Of a DNA stretch of 60,809 bases, positions 1,051-29,133 are shown in pieces. The number at the start of each line of letters is the position of its first letter. The first letter of the stretch is position 1. Source of the stretch: Rozella allomycis CSF55 (Eukaryota); NCBI GenBank assembly GCA_000442015.1, contig KE561370.1, forward strand, positions 1 through 60,809, in the 5' to 3' direction. The notes beneath the pieces were generated by a model, which had not been told where the DNA came from, searched no databases, and saw only the letters and a list, made by a program, of their open reading frames with translations. A program made the translations under genes and the position numbers.

Positions 1051-1072
1051 CCTGCATTGATTTCTTGATGAN

Positions 1073-3402
1073 TCACAAAATCCACTTTAATAACTGATAT
1101 TCTAGATTTACACAATCAAGATCAAATACAAGCATTAATTGGCCCTGGTTTGTCTAGCTTCAGCGTTATTTCTTCCTTAATATTACAAAACTATAACATT
1201 CCAATATGCTGTGGTGCTTCCACTTCTCCAGAACTCGCAAACAAGATTCAGTATCCAAATTTCTTTCGAACAGTTCCAAATGATAATTTTCAAGCAACAG
1301 CTATAGCCAGCTTTGTGAAAAGTAATGGTTGGAACTCTGTTGCTATTATCGCTTTGAATGACGATTATGGCCAAGGTTTAACAAACAAATTTATGCAAGT
1401 AGCCAGAGATCTTGACATTGAAGTATTGGTAAGGACATCATTCTACGAAAATGATTTGGTTGATGGTCCTAAAAAGGCGGTTGATTTAGTAAAAGAAAGT
1501 GATGCCAGAGTGGTTTTGTTTTTTGGGTTTAGCACAGAAATTGTCTCGGTGATTTTATATGCAAAGCAAGTTGGTGTTTATTCCAGAGGATTTGTATGGA
1601 TTTGCTCAGAGGGCGTAGCAATCGACTATAATCGTCTTTCTAGTGAATCGAAAAAGTTAATTCAGGGAACATTGATTTTTCTGCCAAAAGAAGGGCAAGG
1701 GCCAGAATATGATCGAATGATAACATCTTATCAAGATTCAATATTAAACACAACTTCTCCTTATAGGTTGAATAATACCTTATCCATCCCAATGCCATTT
1801 TCAATGAATTATGCTTCTTGCTTGGATCTTCTTGTTCGCGGTATTGACAGAGTATATATAGCACAGGCTAATGCGTCTTTGGATGCACTTACTAATGGGA
1901 CATATCAGGCGAAACTTAAAGTCCCATCTTCGTTTCAATTTGATAATACAGTCATAACACCAACTGGTCATGTCTCATTAGATTGGAACGGTGAAAGAAT
2001 TGGCGAGTATTCTATTTACAACGCAGGTGAAACTGATATTGTTGATGTTGCCACATGGAGTAATGGAAACGTAATACTAAGCGGGGAATTGATTACTTAT
2101 CCAGGTGGTTCAACAGCTAAACCTTTAGGAAGAATTGATCCATCTGAATTGGCTGGTTACGTTTCTTCAACAGATGGGTTTGGGGTTTTGTCATTGGCTT
2201 TGGGCATAATAGGGATTGTATTAGTCACAGTAGTCATTCTGCTATTTATTAAATACAGGAAGCATAAATTACTGGTAAGTTCAAGTTTCCATGTAAGCAT
2301 ATTCTTATTGTCAGTTCTCTATTTGAACTTTTTGCAACTTATTATTATGCCTGGAATACCAACAAGTTCATTCTGTAAAGCGGACACGACACTTTTGGTA
2401 TTGTCCTTTTCTCTATTTTATGGGAACTTGATTGCAAAAAGTGTTCGATTGTATAAAATATTTTATGTCATAAAGACGAATGGCGGAAACAAATGGACAG
2501 ATAGGAAAGTAATCTTATTTGGTTCTTTGTTTGCTATGATAAACATTATTTTAATCATTATTTGGAATACTATAGACAATCCTAGTCCTATGATCTTAAA
2601 AAGACCGGGTACTAAAGACTATTTTTGGACATGCAGAAGTCAGTCAGCCTCATTCCAGTCAACAATGTTGACAACCATCCTTTTGTATTGTGGTATTATT
2701 CTTCTTGGAAACTTGATGATGGCTGTAAAAACTCGTGGAATTCCTTCAAAGTTTCAAGAAACAAAAACTATTGGATTATCAGTTTATAATTTAGCAATTG
2801 TTCTCATATTTGCCATCCCAACTTTAGTTAGTCAAAGTCTTGATTATCAATCAGCATTTGCTATAAAGGTTATAGTCATCGCCTACTGTTCCTTTTTTAA
2901 TCTTTTCACCATGTTCCTTCATAAATTGTTCTTAATATACTCGAACACTTATAGCAGTGGTACAAGCACAAAAGGTGCACAGAGTGAAAATGTAGAGTCC
3001 AAAATGGCACAAGAAGAAATTGGCAGGATGTACAAATCTTTTAGCAAAGTTTCCCTGAAAATCACATCAGGTTTTTCGATGTTTAATGAGTATCGTTTGT
3101 TTGCACTGATCTTGAATCAAGATAGTAAAAGCATTTATCTGATGCCTTTCATGCGAGCAACAGTTGAAGATCAATTGCAGTCATCTGGCCATTGTACGGC
3201 ATGGGTTCTTCCAACGTTGAAGGTATTCACTTGTGCCAAGAACGAAGCGAGTCTTTCAGTAAATGTGGTAGTCGAGAGTACAAAATATCATATAAAGTTC
3301 AATGAAAAGGATCAATATCAGAATTGGGTTAATATATTTGAGCTTTGGCAGACCAAAGTGTCTACGGCTGATTCCTTTTCTACGAAATTATTGAATAAAT
3401 AA
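1073..3402 (+). CDS. Class C (glutamate/GABA-B-like) GPCR: Venus-flytrap domain + 7TM + PH-like tail; 5' end truncated by an N gap
   Basis: The frame is open from the N at 1072 (..ALIGPG..). VFT motifs STSPELANK.QYPNFFRT.PND and WNSVAII..DDYG; 7tm_3 motifs LIAKS.RLYKIF and KTRGIPSKFQETK.I. Confidence 0.9.
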
Positions 3403-22189: not shown

Positions 22190-24565
22190 TTAAATTCTTT
22201 TTAATCTTTGATAATAGGCATCCCCATAAAATGAAATGAGTTCTGGATTGCAAACGACAGCCATTTTGCTTGGTAGAGCATCATCCATCTTAAATGACCT
22301 ATCTGTGCGACATAGCATGACAAACACAAAGTCGGTTCCCTGTAAATGCGTAGTAATGGCCTGGCGCACTTTTTGATATTCAGCATCAATTAAGTTATTG
22401 GCAACCAGGGATGGAAGTTGAGATGTTTTTATCTGGAAAGTAAGAAGCAATTTCGTAGAATCAGGATCATTTAATGAGACGTACGTAAAACAATCAAACG
22501 GAGCACCAGTCCCATTTACTACACAATCACCAACAGAAAATGATGGAGCCTCGGTTATTGGGTAGCGATATGTGATGCGTCTTAATCGAATTTTGTCAAT
22601 TGAGGGAATTATAATTTCAACTTCAGATGGTATATTGATTATAGCACCCCGAAAAAATTCATGAAGAGAAATGGTTTTATAACCAAGGCACGAATACAAA
22701 GACAAGCGAAACGCAACGTAAAATTGATTAAAAGTCTCCCATTCTTGCCATCCGATATCCTTCCCAATTAAAATCTGGCTCCACAAATTTGCATATGAAT
22801 TTCCTTTTGCTCGACAAATGTGACACCAGGCAAAAATAAATGGCACTTTAACATAATACGTAAAATCATTTCTTGGCTCCAACTTTAAAAGTCCCAATGC
22901 TTCGAGATCACGAAAAGTAACATTATTTTCAACAATGGCGTGACGGTCCACTTCAATAGACAAAAATGAATACGCGATTGCCTTGGTAAACCCAGGAGTA
23001 TGCAATCTATATCTTTTGTTAATTTCAGATCGCACTTGTTGACTAATAATTTCCCAACTATTATTCATATAGTTATTTGATGTCAGGAGGGCATTGTATA
23101 GAAATTCAAAGGCGCGGCAATGACCTCCGACATCGGATATTATTTGCTTCAGTTCTCTGCCTATTGTTAAATCTGGAATTTTATATTTAAGTATACGTTC
23201 ACAAGACGTTAATGAAAGTAAAGGCAGGGGAATGTGGCATGGTGGATACATCGAATCAGTAACGATTTCGGATATCGGACCGATCACTGTTCCTGACAAA
23301 ACAGGGACAAAAAATACATCACCGGTGCCAGCCGAGGTAGTCCCAGCCCACGCAAACAATTCTCTGAATTTTATGGTGTTAAAATTATGTACCCTATTAA
23401 CCTCATCAAAGCACATGACTATGCAAGTCGTTTTCTGCCCCAATGCACTAATTAAATCACTCAACGTAAATTCTATATGGGGCCTATGTGCTAAAAATAA
23501 ACTAAAGAATTTGTAAGTGTCTTGAATTTCATATAAGATCCTTGATAGAATAATGTCTTCAATCATATTATTGGAATCTGCTGCACAAAACGCAGTATCG
23601 TTTCCAAAATTGATATTAATAAATACCGCCTTTAACAAAGCCTCTTTAAAGTTTTCTGTTTCATGCGATTCATTTAGAAATTGTTTATAAGAACTCGAGA
23701 GCTCCTGAAGAAACCTAGATTTGCCACTGCCGGGACCATCTGCAACAAACGGAATTGGGTGATGTCCCTTGTCTCTAGAACCTTTCACCCAGGCATTATA
23801 ACGTTGAGCCAAACAACTAGTCAAAACCCTAAACGAACGTTCGCGATCACAAAAAGGAAAATCTTTTCCGCTTGTATCCAACAATTCTGTAGATTTGCGT
23901 GCCATTAATGCTTTGACTACGTCGTCCAAGTGAACCTCTGCTTTGATCTTACTTTTCAAAACGCGAGACTGTGGAAACATTGCCAACAATGACGCCAAAA
24001 CTAAAATACGTTCGTTAGCATACAATTACTTTTATGATAATTATCGTCACCATCTATTAGACGAAGAAGCACAATCAAATGCTCCTCTTTCCAAGGGTAG
24101 GACCGGATTATTTCACCGGAAAGATGTTGGGCTAGTTGAGAATATAATTGTCGAGGCAGAGCATTTTTAAGCTCTTGTTCTTTTATGTTAGTTTCAAACT
24201 CCACTCTATCACCTTCAATCTTCATTAAAAGTAATGCAACATTTCGCATCAACGATTTATCAAGATTAGTAGCATCTAGATTTGCGCAGAACGTAGAGAA
24301 AAATGTGTCATGGGAAATTAGGGGCTTTACCAAAGCAATTGTGTCATTACACACGGATTCGCCATAAGCCGAAAGCATATTTTTGAGTCTGTGTTCTATG
24401 ATTTACGTTCCAAAAGAACAAATTACCGTACAAAATAAAACTACCCAAGCGGAAATCAGTACCAACTGAAATATTGAAGGAATGAAATGAAATATCATGG
24501 TCCAAGGTTTTAATTTCTTTGATGACCTTCAACAAGCTCTTACTTTTACGCGATGGACTCGACAT
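22190..24565 (-). CDS. Crinkler/RHS-type protein: P-loop NTPase + C-terminal PD-(D/E)xK nuclease-like domain (~771 aa, 2 introns)
   Basis: Walker A DGPGSGKS, Walker B MCFDEV, DVGGHCRAFE, WQEWETF, NGTGAPFD..FQIK. Removing introns 24396-24426 and 24001-24029 joins three ORFs in frame. Confidence 0.8.
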
Positions 24566-27327: not shown

Positions 27328-27611
27328 CGTTGTTTCTGAATTTCAAAAATTTCGTCGCCTTACCTGATATCTTAATTCTTTTAAAGGCTTGGGACATGAA
27401 AGACTAAAAGTCCGAATTTTACAACAGCAAAAAGAATTTTGACGGCATTTGGAATGTAATTGCAAACAAAATCGAAACACTTTATATTATATAAACTCAA
27501 TAACGATGCAACTAAGTCAGTTGCTACATGTTTTAAAATAGAATTTTTGTTTTAATTAGTTTTATTTAAGATTTAGTCAAAAACAGATTATTGAACATCT
27601 TTAAAAGGAGT

Positions 27612-27627
27612 GGTCTTTAAAAAGACC
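27612..27627 (-). other. Histone 3'-UTR stem-loop of H2A (GGTCTT-TTTA-AAGACC) with downstream TTAAAGAT
   Basis: 6-bp stem and 4-nt loop starting 19 nt after the stop codon; matches the canonical GGYYYTYTNARRRCC-type histone stem-loop. Confidence 0.9.
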
Positions 27628-27645
27628 TATTGATTGATATTAAAT

Positions 27646-28050
27646 TTACAATTCTTGAGATTGAGATCCAGCATTGTCTGACTTGCTCTTCTTTGGAACA
27701 AGAACTTCATGGATATTTGGAAGAACACCACCAGCAGCAATTGTAACGTTTCCAAGGAGCTTGTTCAATTCTTCATCGTTCCTGATTGCAAGTTGAAGAT
27801 GTCTTGGAACAATACGAGATTTCTTGTTGTCACGAGCTGCATTTCCAGCCAATTCAAGAATTTCAGCAGTCAAGTATTCCAAAACTGCAGCCAGGTAAAC
27901 AGGTGCTCCAGCACCGACACGTTGAGCATAGTTTCCTTTACGAAGAAATCTGTGGACACGACCAACTGGAAATTGAAGTCCTGCCTTTGATGAACGAGAT
28001 GTTGCTTTTGTTGCTGATGAAGCTGCTTTTCCGCCTTTTCCTCCTGCCAT
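27646..28050 (-). CDS. H2A: Histone H2A with C-terminal SQEL (H2A.X-type motif)
   Basis: [30 protein letters not shown]..; intronless. Confidence 0.99.
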
Positions 28051-28080
28051 ATTGAGATGAGGGTGGGTAGAAAGTCATCT

Positions 28081-28300
28081 ATATATATGTATTTTTCCCG
28101 CCAAAATTATTGATTTTTTGACAGCCAATCAGAACACAGGACCCATGTTTTTTGACAAAGATAAGTGTTTAAATAAAAAATCCGAAGGGATATTATAAAA
28201 TAATATTTTTTAAATAATATTTGCATTTTGTAGACTCTCTTTAAGTGACGACTGACAGTTCGCAATTTTGGCGGGAGAATTTTCGAAAAACATATAAATA
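28081..28300. promoter_or_regulatory. Bidirectional histone promoter: two inverted E2F-like sites, CCAAT box, TATA-like boxes
   Basis: AATTTTGGCGGGA on the minus strand at 28096-28108 and on the plus strand at 28264-28276; AGCCAATCAG at 28123-28132; TATAAATA at 28293-28300 and TATATATA near 28081. Confidence 0.75.
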
Positions 28301-28336
28301 CCCGACCCTTCCTTCCAAGCCCCATTCACACTAGTA

Positions 28337-28720
28337 ATGTCTACCGTTTCAAAAGCTGAAAAGAAACCTGCAGGAAAAGCTCCAGTAAAGGCTACCTCCG
28401 TCAAAGCTAAGCCTGACGCTGGAAAGAGAAAAAAGACCCGTCACGAAACTTATGGTTCCTACATTTACAAAGTTTTGAAGCAAGTTCACCCTGAAATCGG
28501 TATCTCCAACAAGGCTATGGCAATTATGAACTCATTTGTTAATGATATTTTTGAACGTATTGCATCAGAAGCATCAAAACTAGCTTCATACAACAAGAAA
28601 ACAACATTGTCTTCTCGTGAAGTTCAAACTGCTGTTCGTTTGTTGCTTCCAGGTGAATTGTCAAAACACGCAGTTTCAGAAGGAACCAAAGCTGTTACCA
28701 AATATACTGGTGCAAAATAA
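28337..28720 (+). CDS. H2B: Histone H2B
   Basis: [43 protein letters not shown]; intronless. Confidence 0.99.
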
Positions 28721-28743
28721 TTGGTTTCAAATTTCAATATCAA

Positions 28744-28759
28744 GGCTTTTTTAAAAGCC
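28744..28759 (+). other. Histone 3'-UTR stem-loop of H2B (GGCTTT-TTTA-AAAGCC) with downstream TTAAAGAT
   Basis: 6-4-6 hairpin starting 24 nt after the stop codon, preceded by CAA. Confidence 0.9.
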
Positions 28760-29133
28760 ATCTCAATTAAAGATATCACTTTTACTCTTATCTTATCTAT
28801 TTGGTATTATTGTCATTTTTTTAAATGTGAAGATTTCTTTGCATTGAATCTTCAAATCTTTCTTCGTTAACTATTGTGCTGGAAATACAAGTCTGTAGAT
28901 CCATAATTGGTGACAGGAGTGGCTACTAGTAGCTGACAGTGGGTATGATTTCGCAAACTTCACGGGTAGGATTTTCATGGACTTGCCGACACAATATATT
29001 AGGTTTCACCAATTAAAAATAAAGCCAAGGTATGATTAACTGTTAATGACGTATTAAATTGATAAATTTGCATCATCAAACTTTTTCCAAGGTGTCAATA
29101 TTCAGCCGGCAAGCCACAAACTTATTTCACCAA

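Follow-up and report, generated by a model that had tools for sequence, protein, structure and literature searches.

The window analysed here is a 60.8-kb stretch of DNA from Rozella allomycis CSF55, a parasite of an early-branching fungal lineage, in which reading of the open reading frames (ORFs) reveals a divergent pair of histone genes. The H2A gene (27646..28050, minus strand) encodes a protein of 134 aa with Pfam matches to Histone_H2A_C (5.9e-18) and Histone (1.1e-16), and the H2B gene (28337..28720, plus strand) encodes a protein of 127 aa that matches Histone (1.9e-21). Both genes are intronless, as an earlier note on this DNA had claimed: the ORFs are uninterrupted, and the Pfam matches confirm that they encode histones. 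The H2A product ends in SQSQEL, which we take to be an H2A.X-like ending of the SQ-E-hydrophobic type. The two genes share a divergent promoter (28093..28279) with the inverted pair TTTTCCCGCCAAAATT (28093-28108) and AATTTTGGCGGGAGAA (28264-28279) and a CCAAT at 28125-28129; TATA-like boxes lie beside it at 28080-28089 (minus strand) and 28293-28299 (plus strand). These motifs are presumably E2F-like, CCAAT and TATA sites. No H3, H4 or H1 genes were found within the 60.8-kb window, and the direct examination covers these two genes. A second H2B gene of R. allomycis CSF55, histone H2B.1, which is 94% identical, is located on another contig. The X9 metatranscriptome contains only pieces less than 95% alike, all on coding parts and none on the UTRs, and is silent on expression and 3' ends.

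Each of the two genes is followed, in the sense orientation, by a hairpin with a perfect Watson-Crick stem of 6 bp and a loop of 4 nt (6-4-6). The H2A stem-loop, GGUCUU-UUUA-AAGACC (27612..27627, minus strand), is separated from the stop codon by 18 nt, with the stem starting at +19, and the H2B stem-loop, GGCUUU-UUUA-AAAGCC (28744..28759, plus strand), by 23 nt, with the stem starting at +24. The stems differ at positions 3 and 4, through two double, compensatory changes. Thus, both the hairpins about 20 nt past the stop codons and the compensatory stem changes reported in the earlier note are borne out. The GG...CC stems and UUUA loops of both genes include a G-C second stem pair and a U at loop position 3, the positions treated as diagnostic in the main text of a preprint by Zhao, Bond and Ni Leathlobhair (October 2026; bioRxiv 10.64898/2026.10.14.759114), which describes the stem-loop/SLBP state in early-diverging fungi and names R. 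allomycis.

A search of the whole window with the Rfam model RF00032 (Histone3) yielded two matches only, both directly 3' of the histone genes, with scores of 30.4 bits for H2B and 28.9 bits for H2A, and no third match at E values up to 10. With the whole window as search space, the respective E values are 1e-4 and 3.6e-4; with a 1.6-kb stretch, they are 2.7e-6 and 9.5e-6. Neither hairpin reaches the gathering score of 34. Perfect 6-4-6 hairpins are common in the window (62 on both strands), and only these two combine a GG start with a U-rich loop. Both are contained in the minimum free energy (MFE) folds of the 65-70 nt flanks. The fold energies are unexceptional (z of -1.2 and -1.7), as hairpins so short and rich in A/U would lead one to expect, and we give them no weight. 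The hairpins are very probably genuine elements of the SLBP type, and SLBP binding is predicted for both.

Downstream of the hairpins, the two genes share an identical octamer, TTAAAGAT, which occupies positions +8 to +15 counted from the end of the stem. On the H2A side, the octamer (27597-27604) is followed by GTTCAAT, and the resulting element (27590..27604, minus strand) forms the end of a block common to variant and paralogous copies; on the H2B side, the octamer (28767-28774) is followed by AT, which gives an element at 28767..28776 (plus strand), and overlaps an ATTAAA at 28766-28771. Given that H2A continues with GT and H2B with AT, the joint motif is TTAAAGAT-R-T. In each gene, its AAAGA core covers +10 to +14. 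Stem and octamer are separated by 7 nt, ACTCCTT in H2A and ATCTCAA in H2B, and these spacers are equal at 2 of 7 positions, so that the differing intervening bases pointed out previously are confirmed together with the octamer itself. An identical same-register run of at least 8 nt within 40 nt after the stem arose in 0.27% of 200,000 flank shuffles and in 0.10% of 200,000 random pairs from the window, that is, with a chance of about 0.001-0.003.

These figures bear on the possibility that the hairpins are real but the octamer is functionless, being either a coincidence in A+T-rich DNA or a leftover of duplication or gene conversion. Two sequences are compared here, and the chance of a shared run rises to 2.6% once the register may slip by as much as 5 nt. 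Furthermore, TTAAAGAT is common in the window, with 21 sites observed against 9.5 expected. The idea that the octamer marks 3' ends throughout this genome was considered and rejected: the other 19 sites are coding or intergenic and have no common context, and none of them is preceded by a hairpin. The combined pattern of hairpin and octamer has no matches in prokaryotic genome contigs. The low same-register chance speaks against a functionless octamer, and the 3' flanks of H2A and H2B are not mutually homologous, so that a common origin does not account for their having the octamer in common. Altogether, we consider a functionless octamer improbable, also in view of the paralogous copies and of the downstream elements of other organisms described below.

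In DNA contigs of paralogous copies, the similarity spans the hairpin and the octamer and ends 3-7 nt later. On the H2A side, the match to diverged paralogues ends at 27590/27591, past the motif, in contigs from X4, X5 and X6, and the 30-mer 27590-27619 is the exact junction between a variant copy in X4 and the reference unitig. For H2B, matching stops at 28777 (X4) and 28780 (X5). In one X4 paralogue of H2B, the match runs from 28744, the first base of the hairpin, to 28777 only; an unrelated 20-nt UTR precedes the hairpin, and the sequence after 28777 is unrelated as well. The diverged paralogues are about 83-90% identical in the coding region, and the alignment still includes the octamer, with unrelated sequence to either side, which argues against the octamer being functionless; among the contig differences listed, the only part of the conserved block with proven identity is 27590-27619, in X4. 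The match boundaries could mark where a duplication or gene conversion stopped and not the limit of a selected region.

For comparison, we used a set of 80 metagenome H2B loci, the best matches among which are 59-84% identical, with no close relative of Rozella. A stem-loop is present in 45 of these loci, and AAAGA occurs within 30 nt after the stem in 15 of the 45, first at +12 to +19; in 11 of these 15 loci, the first AAAGA starts at +12 to +15, most commonly at +13. By comparison, AAAGA is absent from the 30 nt preceding the stem in all 45 loci, and of 32 loci lacking a stem-loop, 2 have it in a matched stretch. On contigs with at least two stem-loops, such as L073, L071, L074 and L054, the genes have an AAAGAG-like core in common, displaced by 0-3 nt from one gene to another. 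Exact same-register runs of at least 8 nt are rare in the histone clusters of other organisms (3 of 37 pairs), so that known systems do not require exact spacing; the same rarity can be counted in favour of a functionless octamer.

A purine-rich core at a short fixed distance, shared among histone genes, is thus present in the two genes of this genome, and the candidate octamer fits the expectation for a histone downstream element (HDE) in both core and location. This fit to elements found elsewhere is a further argument against a functionless octamer. The Rozella elements differ from typical ones of the comparison set in that the AAAGA core starts at +10, which is 2-3 nt nearer the stem than the commonest position (+13). 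The expected cut and the element would therefore lie unusually close together.

The resemblance to the metazoan signal (RF00032/RF00066) includes the 6-bp stem, the 4-nt loop, the GG...CC ends, and pyrimidines in the 5' arm opposite purines in the 3' arm; the G-C second pair, a loop with U in positions 1 and 3, and an A directly following the stem; and the placement of the hairpin about 20 nt past the stop codon of intronless core histone genes, followed by the AAAGA core. The Rozella signals differ from the metazoan ones in their A/U-rich stems, which score 4-5 bits under the Rfam threshold, and in the 3' flank, which is ACUCC or AUCUC in Rozella, whereas the metazoan consensus after the stem is ACCCA.

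Hexamers resembling polyadenylation signals (PAS) are also present. Counted from the stem, ATTAAA in H2B and TTTAAA in H2A begin at +7 and overlap the octamer, and H2A has an AATAAA at +46; no AATAAA is found within 200 nt in H2B. TTTAAA is not among the two standard poly(A) hexamers. The A+T-rich window has a PAS-like hexamer every 620-750 nt or so, and finding one close to a particular site therefore means little. The overlap of these hexamers with the octamer suggests an alternative in which the stem-loop is a real SLBP site but is followed by ordinary cleavage and polyadenylation 10-30 nt further on; the shared motif would then be a PAS-like (A/U)UUAAA or part of a U/A-rich efficiency element, and in the finished mRNA the hairpin would be closely followed by a poly(A) tail, which might be short. 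We regard such polyadenylation as less likely than U7-type cleavage, and as the most probable of the alternatives considered here. The identity of H2A and H2B continues past the hexamer (GAT, then R-T), which a hexamer does not need, and the AAAGA core resembles the downstream core of other stem-loop-bearing genes.

Data from other organisms add to the case for polyadenylation. According to the main text of the preprint (bioRxiv 10.64898/2026.10.14.759114), histone loci of the Cryptomycota, the phylum that contains Rozella, are mostly classed as SLBP-SL-PAS, and poly(A)-tailed stem-loop histone transcripts are reported for H2A of Allomyces macrogynus and H4 of Catenaria. Among the Amoebozoa, transcripts of Physarum polycephalum unite a stem-loop, a purine-rich, HDE-like downstream stretch and PAS-like hexamers, as in Rozella; the Physarum study reports SLBP and LSm10/11 in this organism and states that U7 RNA was not found (PMC8600027). 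The two cases differ in that introns are frequent and both transcript forms were assayed in Physarum (PMC8600027), whereas the Rozella pair is intronless and is examined here as DNA.

With respect to trans-acting factors, the main text of the preprint reports SLBP, LSM11, a FLASH-associated domain and a predicted U7-like RNA for R. allomycis (bioRxiv 10.64898/2026.10.14.759114). That prediction makes the earlier statement that U7 RNA has been described essentially only in animals out of date. In the same text, LSM10 is not reported for R. allomycis, and LSM10 together with LSM11 is said to be found in no fungus; in its Discussion, a recognisable U7 system is argued to be largely missing from fungi and the canonical U7-dependent complex not to be generally conserved there. 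In the Results, the first part of the Discussion and Methods sections 27 and 33, HDEs are defined as downstream 'AAA' or 'AAGA' motifs only, and these parts do not describe the identical octamer, the fixed +8 spacing or the implied anti-HDE sequence, which the supplementary figures may contain. In the 60.8-kb window, we detected no match to RF00066 (U7) at E values up to 10. A scan of the window for an anti-HDE combined with an Sm-like site and a hairpin, as proposed in the earlier note, returned 5 weak matches, none of them convincing and two inside the histone promoter. The missing U7-like RNA is uninformative because the window is a 60-kb piece of the genome.

The limited conservation of the U7-dependent complex in fungi is also what favours a further alternative, namely, that hairpin and octamer together form some other DNA or RNA signal, such as one for termination or pausing or a site for a protein other than SLBP, with no link to U7. 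We consider this very improbable: the hairpins carry the specific SLBP determinants and match RF00032, they are transcribed in the sense direction, their distance from the histone stop codons is the canonical one, and SLBP itself is reported in R. allomycis.

With these alternatives weighed, the best explanation, which we hold at about even confidence, is that both genes carry SLBP-type 3' stem-loops, each followed by a putative HDE-like motif UUAAAGAU(R)U with AAAGA from +10. In the most likely mechanism, the hairpin of the nascent transcript would be bound by SLBP, and the downstream motif would pair with a U7-like snRNP through a 5' AUCUUUAA-type sequence. A CPSF73-type nuclease would then cut between the hairpin and the motif, a few nucleotides after the stem, and the product would be a replication-coupled histone mRNA ending in the hairpin. 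Our confidence in the full U7/HDE cleavage reading falls slightly short of even; its inferred parts are the base pairing, the position of the cut and the lack of a poly(A) tail. More tentatively, R. allomycis might possess a working, compact form of U7-type histone pre-mRNA cleavage, the first in the fungal lineage, with mRNAs devoid of poly(A). The 10-nt element UUAAAGAU(R)U, which starts 8 nt after the stem and some 3-4 nt after the expected cut, would in this case pair with a U7-like RNA carrying 5'-A(Y)AUCUUUAA-3'.

Hairpin-ended, tail-less histone mRNAs were long held to be an animal speciality, to which some algae and protists were added later; to our knowledge, they were long taken as lost in fungi. 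The joint presence of the hairpin, a guide-RNA site and the factors in the fungal lineage would date the complete machinery back to the ancestor that animals and fungi share. If the compact form of cleavage is real, the RNA-guided 'ruler' predates the split between animals and fungi and works at a shorter distance than in animals; Rozella would offer a small genome for asking what the minimal histone 3'-end system is. The feature observed here is real, and its kind is essentially already known. Stem-loop retention was surveyed in the 2026 preprint (bioRxiv 10.64898/2026.10.14.759114), so that the main inference is already in print as a computational prediction, and the general evolutionary point is already made in its main text. 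Of the candidate SLBP/U7 processing put forward in the earlier note, the genuine histone stem-loops in a fungal lineage and the HDE-like octamer stand, whereas the predominance of stem-loop plus PAS loci among Cryptomycota, as classed in that text, tells against U7-dependent processing. What the present locus adds is a falsifiable prediction, that AUCUUUAA lies near the 5' end of the predicted U7-like RNA of this species, and a second one, that the octamer follows 8 nt after the stem of the remaining histone genes.

The two 3'UTRs also resemble each other upstream of the hairpins. The element AAATTTAATATCAA (27634..27647, minus strand), upstream of the H2A hairpin, and the element AATTTCAATATCAA (28730..28743, plus strand), which abuts the H2B hairpin, form an inverted pair and are equal at 12 of 14 positions, with the H2A element located 6 nt further from the stem.

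Two intronless histone genes, detected as open reading frames and confirmed as histones by Pfam, are transcribed divergently in the window: H2A at 27646-28050 (minus strand; 134 aa) and H2B at 28337-28720 (plus strand; 127 aa). The G+C content across the whole window is 33-39%, and the closest named relatives of H2B in a protein search, like those of the protein encoded by the open reading frame at 22190-24025, belong to chytrids and other early-diverging fungi; the window is DNA of a cryptomycete and so belongs to a lineage that branches at the base of Fungi. A second H2B of R. allomycis CSF55, named 'histone H2B.1' and 94% identical, is encoded on another contig.

In the mRNA sense, a short A/U-rich leader separates the stop codon of each gene from a perfect hairpin with a 6-bp stem and a 4-nt loop, GGUCUU-UUUA-AAGACC in H2A (stem from +19 after the stop) and GGCUUU-UUUA-AAAGCC in H2B (stem from +24). 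Positions 3 and 4 set the two stems apart, each pair there being changed on both sides. Both hairpins have a G-C second pair and a U at loop position 3, features regarded as diagnostic of recognition by SLBP (Zhao, Bond and Ni Leathlobhair, bioRxiv 10.64898/2026.10.14.759114, 2026; hereafter, the preprint). The window contains 62 perfect 6-4-6 hairpins, counting both strands, and only these two combine a GG start with a U-rich loop. The Rfam model Histone3 (RF00032) matches them with 30.4 bits (H2B) and 28.9 bits (H2A), at whole-window E of 1e-4 and 3.6e-4, and has no further match at E up to 10 in the 60.8 kb; these scores are below the gathering score of 34, so that neither hairpin passes Rfam's own threshold. 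The hairpins are present in minimum-free-energy folds of the flanks, and the fold energies of the 65-70 nt flank stretches are not exceptional (z of -1.2 and -1.7). Both hairpins are very probably SLBP-type elements. Upstream of them lies a second 3'UTR element, AAATTTAATATCAA in H2A (27634-27647, minus strand) and AATTTCAATATCAA in H2B (28730-28743, plus strand), alike at 12 of 14 positions; it adjoins the stem in H2B and is located 6 nt further off in H2A, where TCAATA resembles an inserted partial repeat.

In both genes, the octamer TTAAAGAT occupies exactly positions +8 to +15 after the stem, and the 7-nt spacers between stem and octamer are alike at only two of seven positions. Re-reading of the sequence agrees in every detail with the earlier note, which had reported the hairpins, the octamer spacing and the spacer difference; its description is thus correct throughout, and the feature is real. 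A same-register identical run of at least 8 nt within 40 nt after the stems arises in 0.27% of shuffles and in 0.10% of random window pairs (200,000 of each), climbing to 2.6% if a register slip of up to 5 nt is permitted. The octamer is also overabundant in the window, with 21 sites on both strands versus 9.5 ± 2.9 expected from dinucleotide-preserving shuffles, none of 100 of which reaches 21; the other 19 sites are scattered in coding and intergenic DNA, none after a hairpin and with no common context. An origin of the downstream motif by chance, or its service as some other signal, appears unlikely.

For comparison, a metagenome scan with H2B yielded 80 loci from diverse eukaryotes, 59-84% identical to the query and with no close relative of Rozella among them. 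A simple rule, which asked for a second pair of G-C, six pairs with G-U allowed and a U at both loop position 1 and loop position 3, no more than 200 nt from the stop, identified a stem-loop in 45 of the 80, a few of them doubtful, such as loci L012 and L019. AAAGA occurs within 30 nt after the stem in 15 of these 45 loci and over the same length ahead of the stem in none; among 32 loci that lack a stem-loop, the matched stretch contains it in 2. The first AAAGA after the stem starts at +12 to +19 (+12 to +15 in 11 of the 15). In the 17 contigs with at least two stem-loops, an AAAGAG-like core is common to the 3' sides of different genes on one contig with a shift of 0-3 nt (contigs L073, L071, L074, L054 and L060), and exact same-register runs of at least 8 nt are uncommon, being found in 3 of 37 pairs (at least 6 nt, 11 of 37). 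These counts and this recurrence indicate that the Rozella octamer has the core and nearly the position of the classical downstream element, although it lies 2-3 nt nearer the stem than the commonest position in the comparison set.

The preprint, dated 16 October 2026, covers the same ground and reports that SLBP and stem-loops are generally kept in early-diverging fungi. In R. allomycis, it describes stem-loops 3' of every core histone, at a typical distance from the stop of about 26 nt, together with SLBP, LSM11, a FLASH-associated domain and a U7-like snRNA predicted with RF00066 at no less than 23.34 bits. The kind of feature and its presence in this species have therefore already been described, as a computational result. 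The main text of the preprint, as examined, accepts any 'AAA' or 'AAGA' downstream as a histone downstream element and does not contain the identical octamer or its spacing. No other paper tying SLBP to Rozella or to early-fungal phyla was found in the literature searched. Earlier surveys describe stem-loops and SLBP from protists and algae (PMC5054213; PMC8600027, Physarum).

The best-supported interpretation of the Rozella 3' module is that it is a retained ancestral one. Its hairpin and octamer are the parts seen directly in the DNA. SLBP, reported for the species in the preprint, as are the other factors, would bind the hairpin; a U7-like snRNP would pair with UUAAAGAU(R)U, where H2A has G and H2B has A at position 9 of the element, either of them able to pair with U; and a CPSF73-type nuclease would then cut inside the 7-nt spacer. 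This pairing, the cleavage and the lack of a tail are what we infer, and we put the reading of the downstream element as a site of U7-type cleavage at just short of an even chance. According to the preprint, LSM10 together with LSM11 was found in no fungus, a recognisable U7 system is argued to be largely absent from fungi, and Cryptomycota loci are mostly of class 'SLBP-SL-PAS'. The main alternative, a stem-loop combined with 3' end formation by polyadenylation, is a lesser but real possibility: stem-loop transcripts carry poly(A) tails in the sister lineages Allomyces and Catenaria (preprint), the octamer overlaps ATTAAA (H2B) or TTTAAA (H2A) at +7, and H2A has AATAAA at +46, with none within 200 nt in H2B. 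However, the identity between the two genes continues past the hexamer (GAT-R-T), and the A+T-rich window has one such hexamer per 620-750 nt. Under U7-type cleavage, the U7-like RNA of R. allomycis is predicted to carry AUCUUUAA, and the other histone genes of the species to show the octamer at 8 nt past their stems; these predictions are what value remains in the locus, as a sharp, cheap test.

Further H2A/H2B copies are visible in assembled DNA contigs of four sequencing runs aligned on 27450-28950. At least three copy classes (identical, about 97% alike and about 83-90% alike) are present in runs X4, X5 and X6, so that the pair represents a small multigene family or diverged haplotypes. 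In the diverged paralogue, about 10-17% of coding positions differ (36 of 333 letters in X4 record 5; 61 of 361 in X5 record 13). At its H2A end, the match stops at 27590 (X4, X5) or 27591 (X6), 6-7 nt past the octamer, and the sequence is unrelated thereafter; at the H2B end, it stops 3-6 nt past the octamer, at 28777 (X4) or 28780 (X5). In one X4 H2B paralogue, the 20-nt UTR, which runs into GGCTTTT, is unlike that of the window; this copy matches from the first hairpin base, 28744, to 28777 and is unrelated beyond. The second 3'UTR element is thus not universal. A closer X4 variant joins the reference unitig at precisely the 30-mer 27590-27619 and beyond 27590 carries at least 9 substitutions and at least 6 indels in about 100 nt. 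Going by the differences listed, these endpoints delimit, in each diverging copy, a conserved 3' module from the hairpin through the octamer plus a few bases, the boundaries of which could be the ends of duplication or conversion tracts; the roughly 97% variant of the H2B flank remains similar up to 28950 and is uninformative on this boundary. One contig with both paralogous genes has an intergenic stretch of 317 letters versus 339 in the window.

The shared promoter contains a 16-nt inverted pair, TTTTCCCGCCAAAATT (28093-28108) and AATTTTGGCGGGAGAA (28264-28279), 94% complementary, with each arm about 15-20 nt upstream of a TATA-like box: CATATATATA for H2A (28080-28089, minus strand) and TATAAAT for H2B (28293-28299). 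The 12-mer CCCGCCAAAATT occurs in the window only at the two arms (chance expectation, 0.27) and is similar to the E2F-type TTTSSCGC site; if E2F-like, the pair would fit S-phase control of H2A and H2B in a lineage that keeps E2F. A CCAAT box, GCCAATCAG, lies between the genes at 28125-28129, and its flanking by TATA-like boxes on either side is presumably an animal-like histone promoter layout. The H2A C-terminus SQSQEL (27646-27663, minus strand) is an ending that we take to be of the H2A.X type, SQ-E-hydrophobic; hence the 'canonical' stem-loop-bearing H2A may also serve as the DNA-damage variant, as it does in yeasts.

Elsewhere in the window, the open reading frame at 22190-24025 (minus strand) is 100% identical to the hypothetical protein ROZALSC1DRAFT_26724 [Rozella allomycis CSF55]; it has no Pfam match, carries the UniRef name 'Crinkler (CRN) family protein', and has a same-species paralogue (43% identical) and relatives 35-44% identical in chytrids and many environmental contigs. 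The open reading frame at 1072-3402 (plus strand) encodes a protein of the class C GPCR type, which combines an ANF_receptor ligand-binding region with a 7tm_3 domain; receptors of this class are not commonly known from fungi outside early-diverging lineages.
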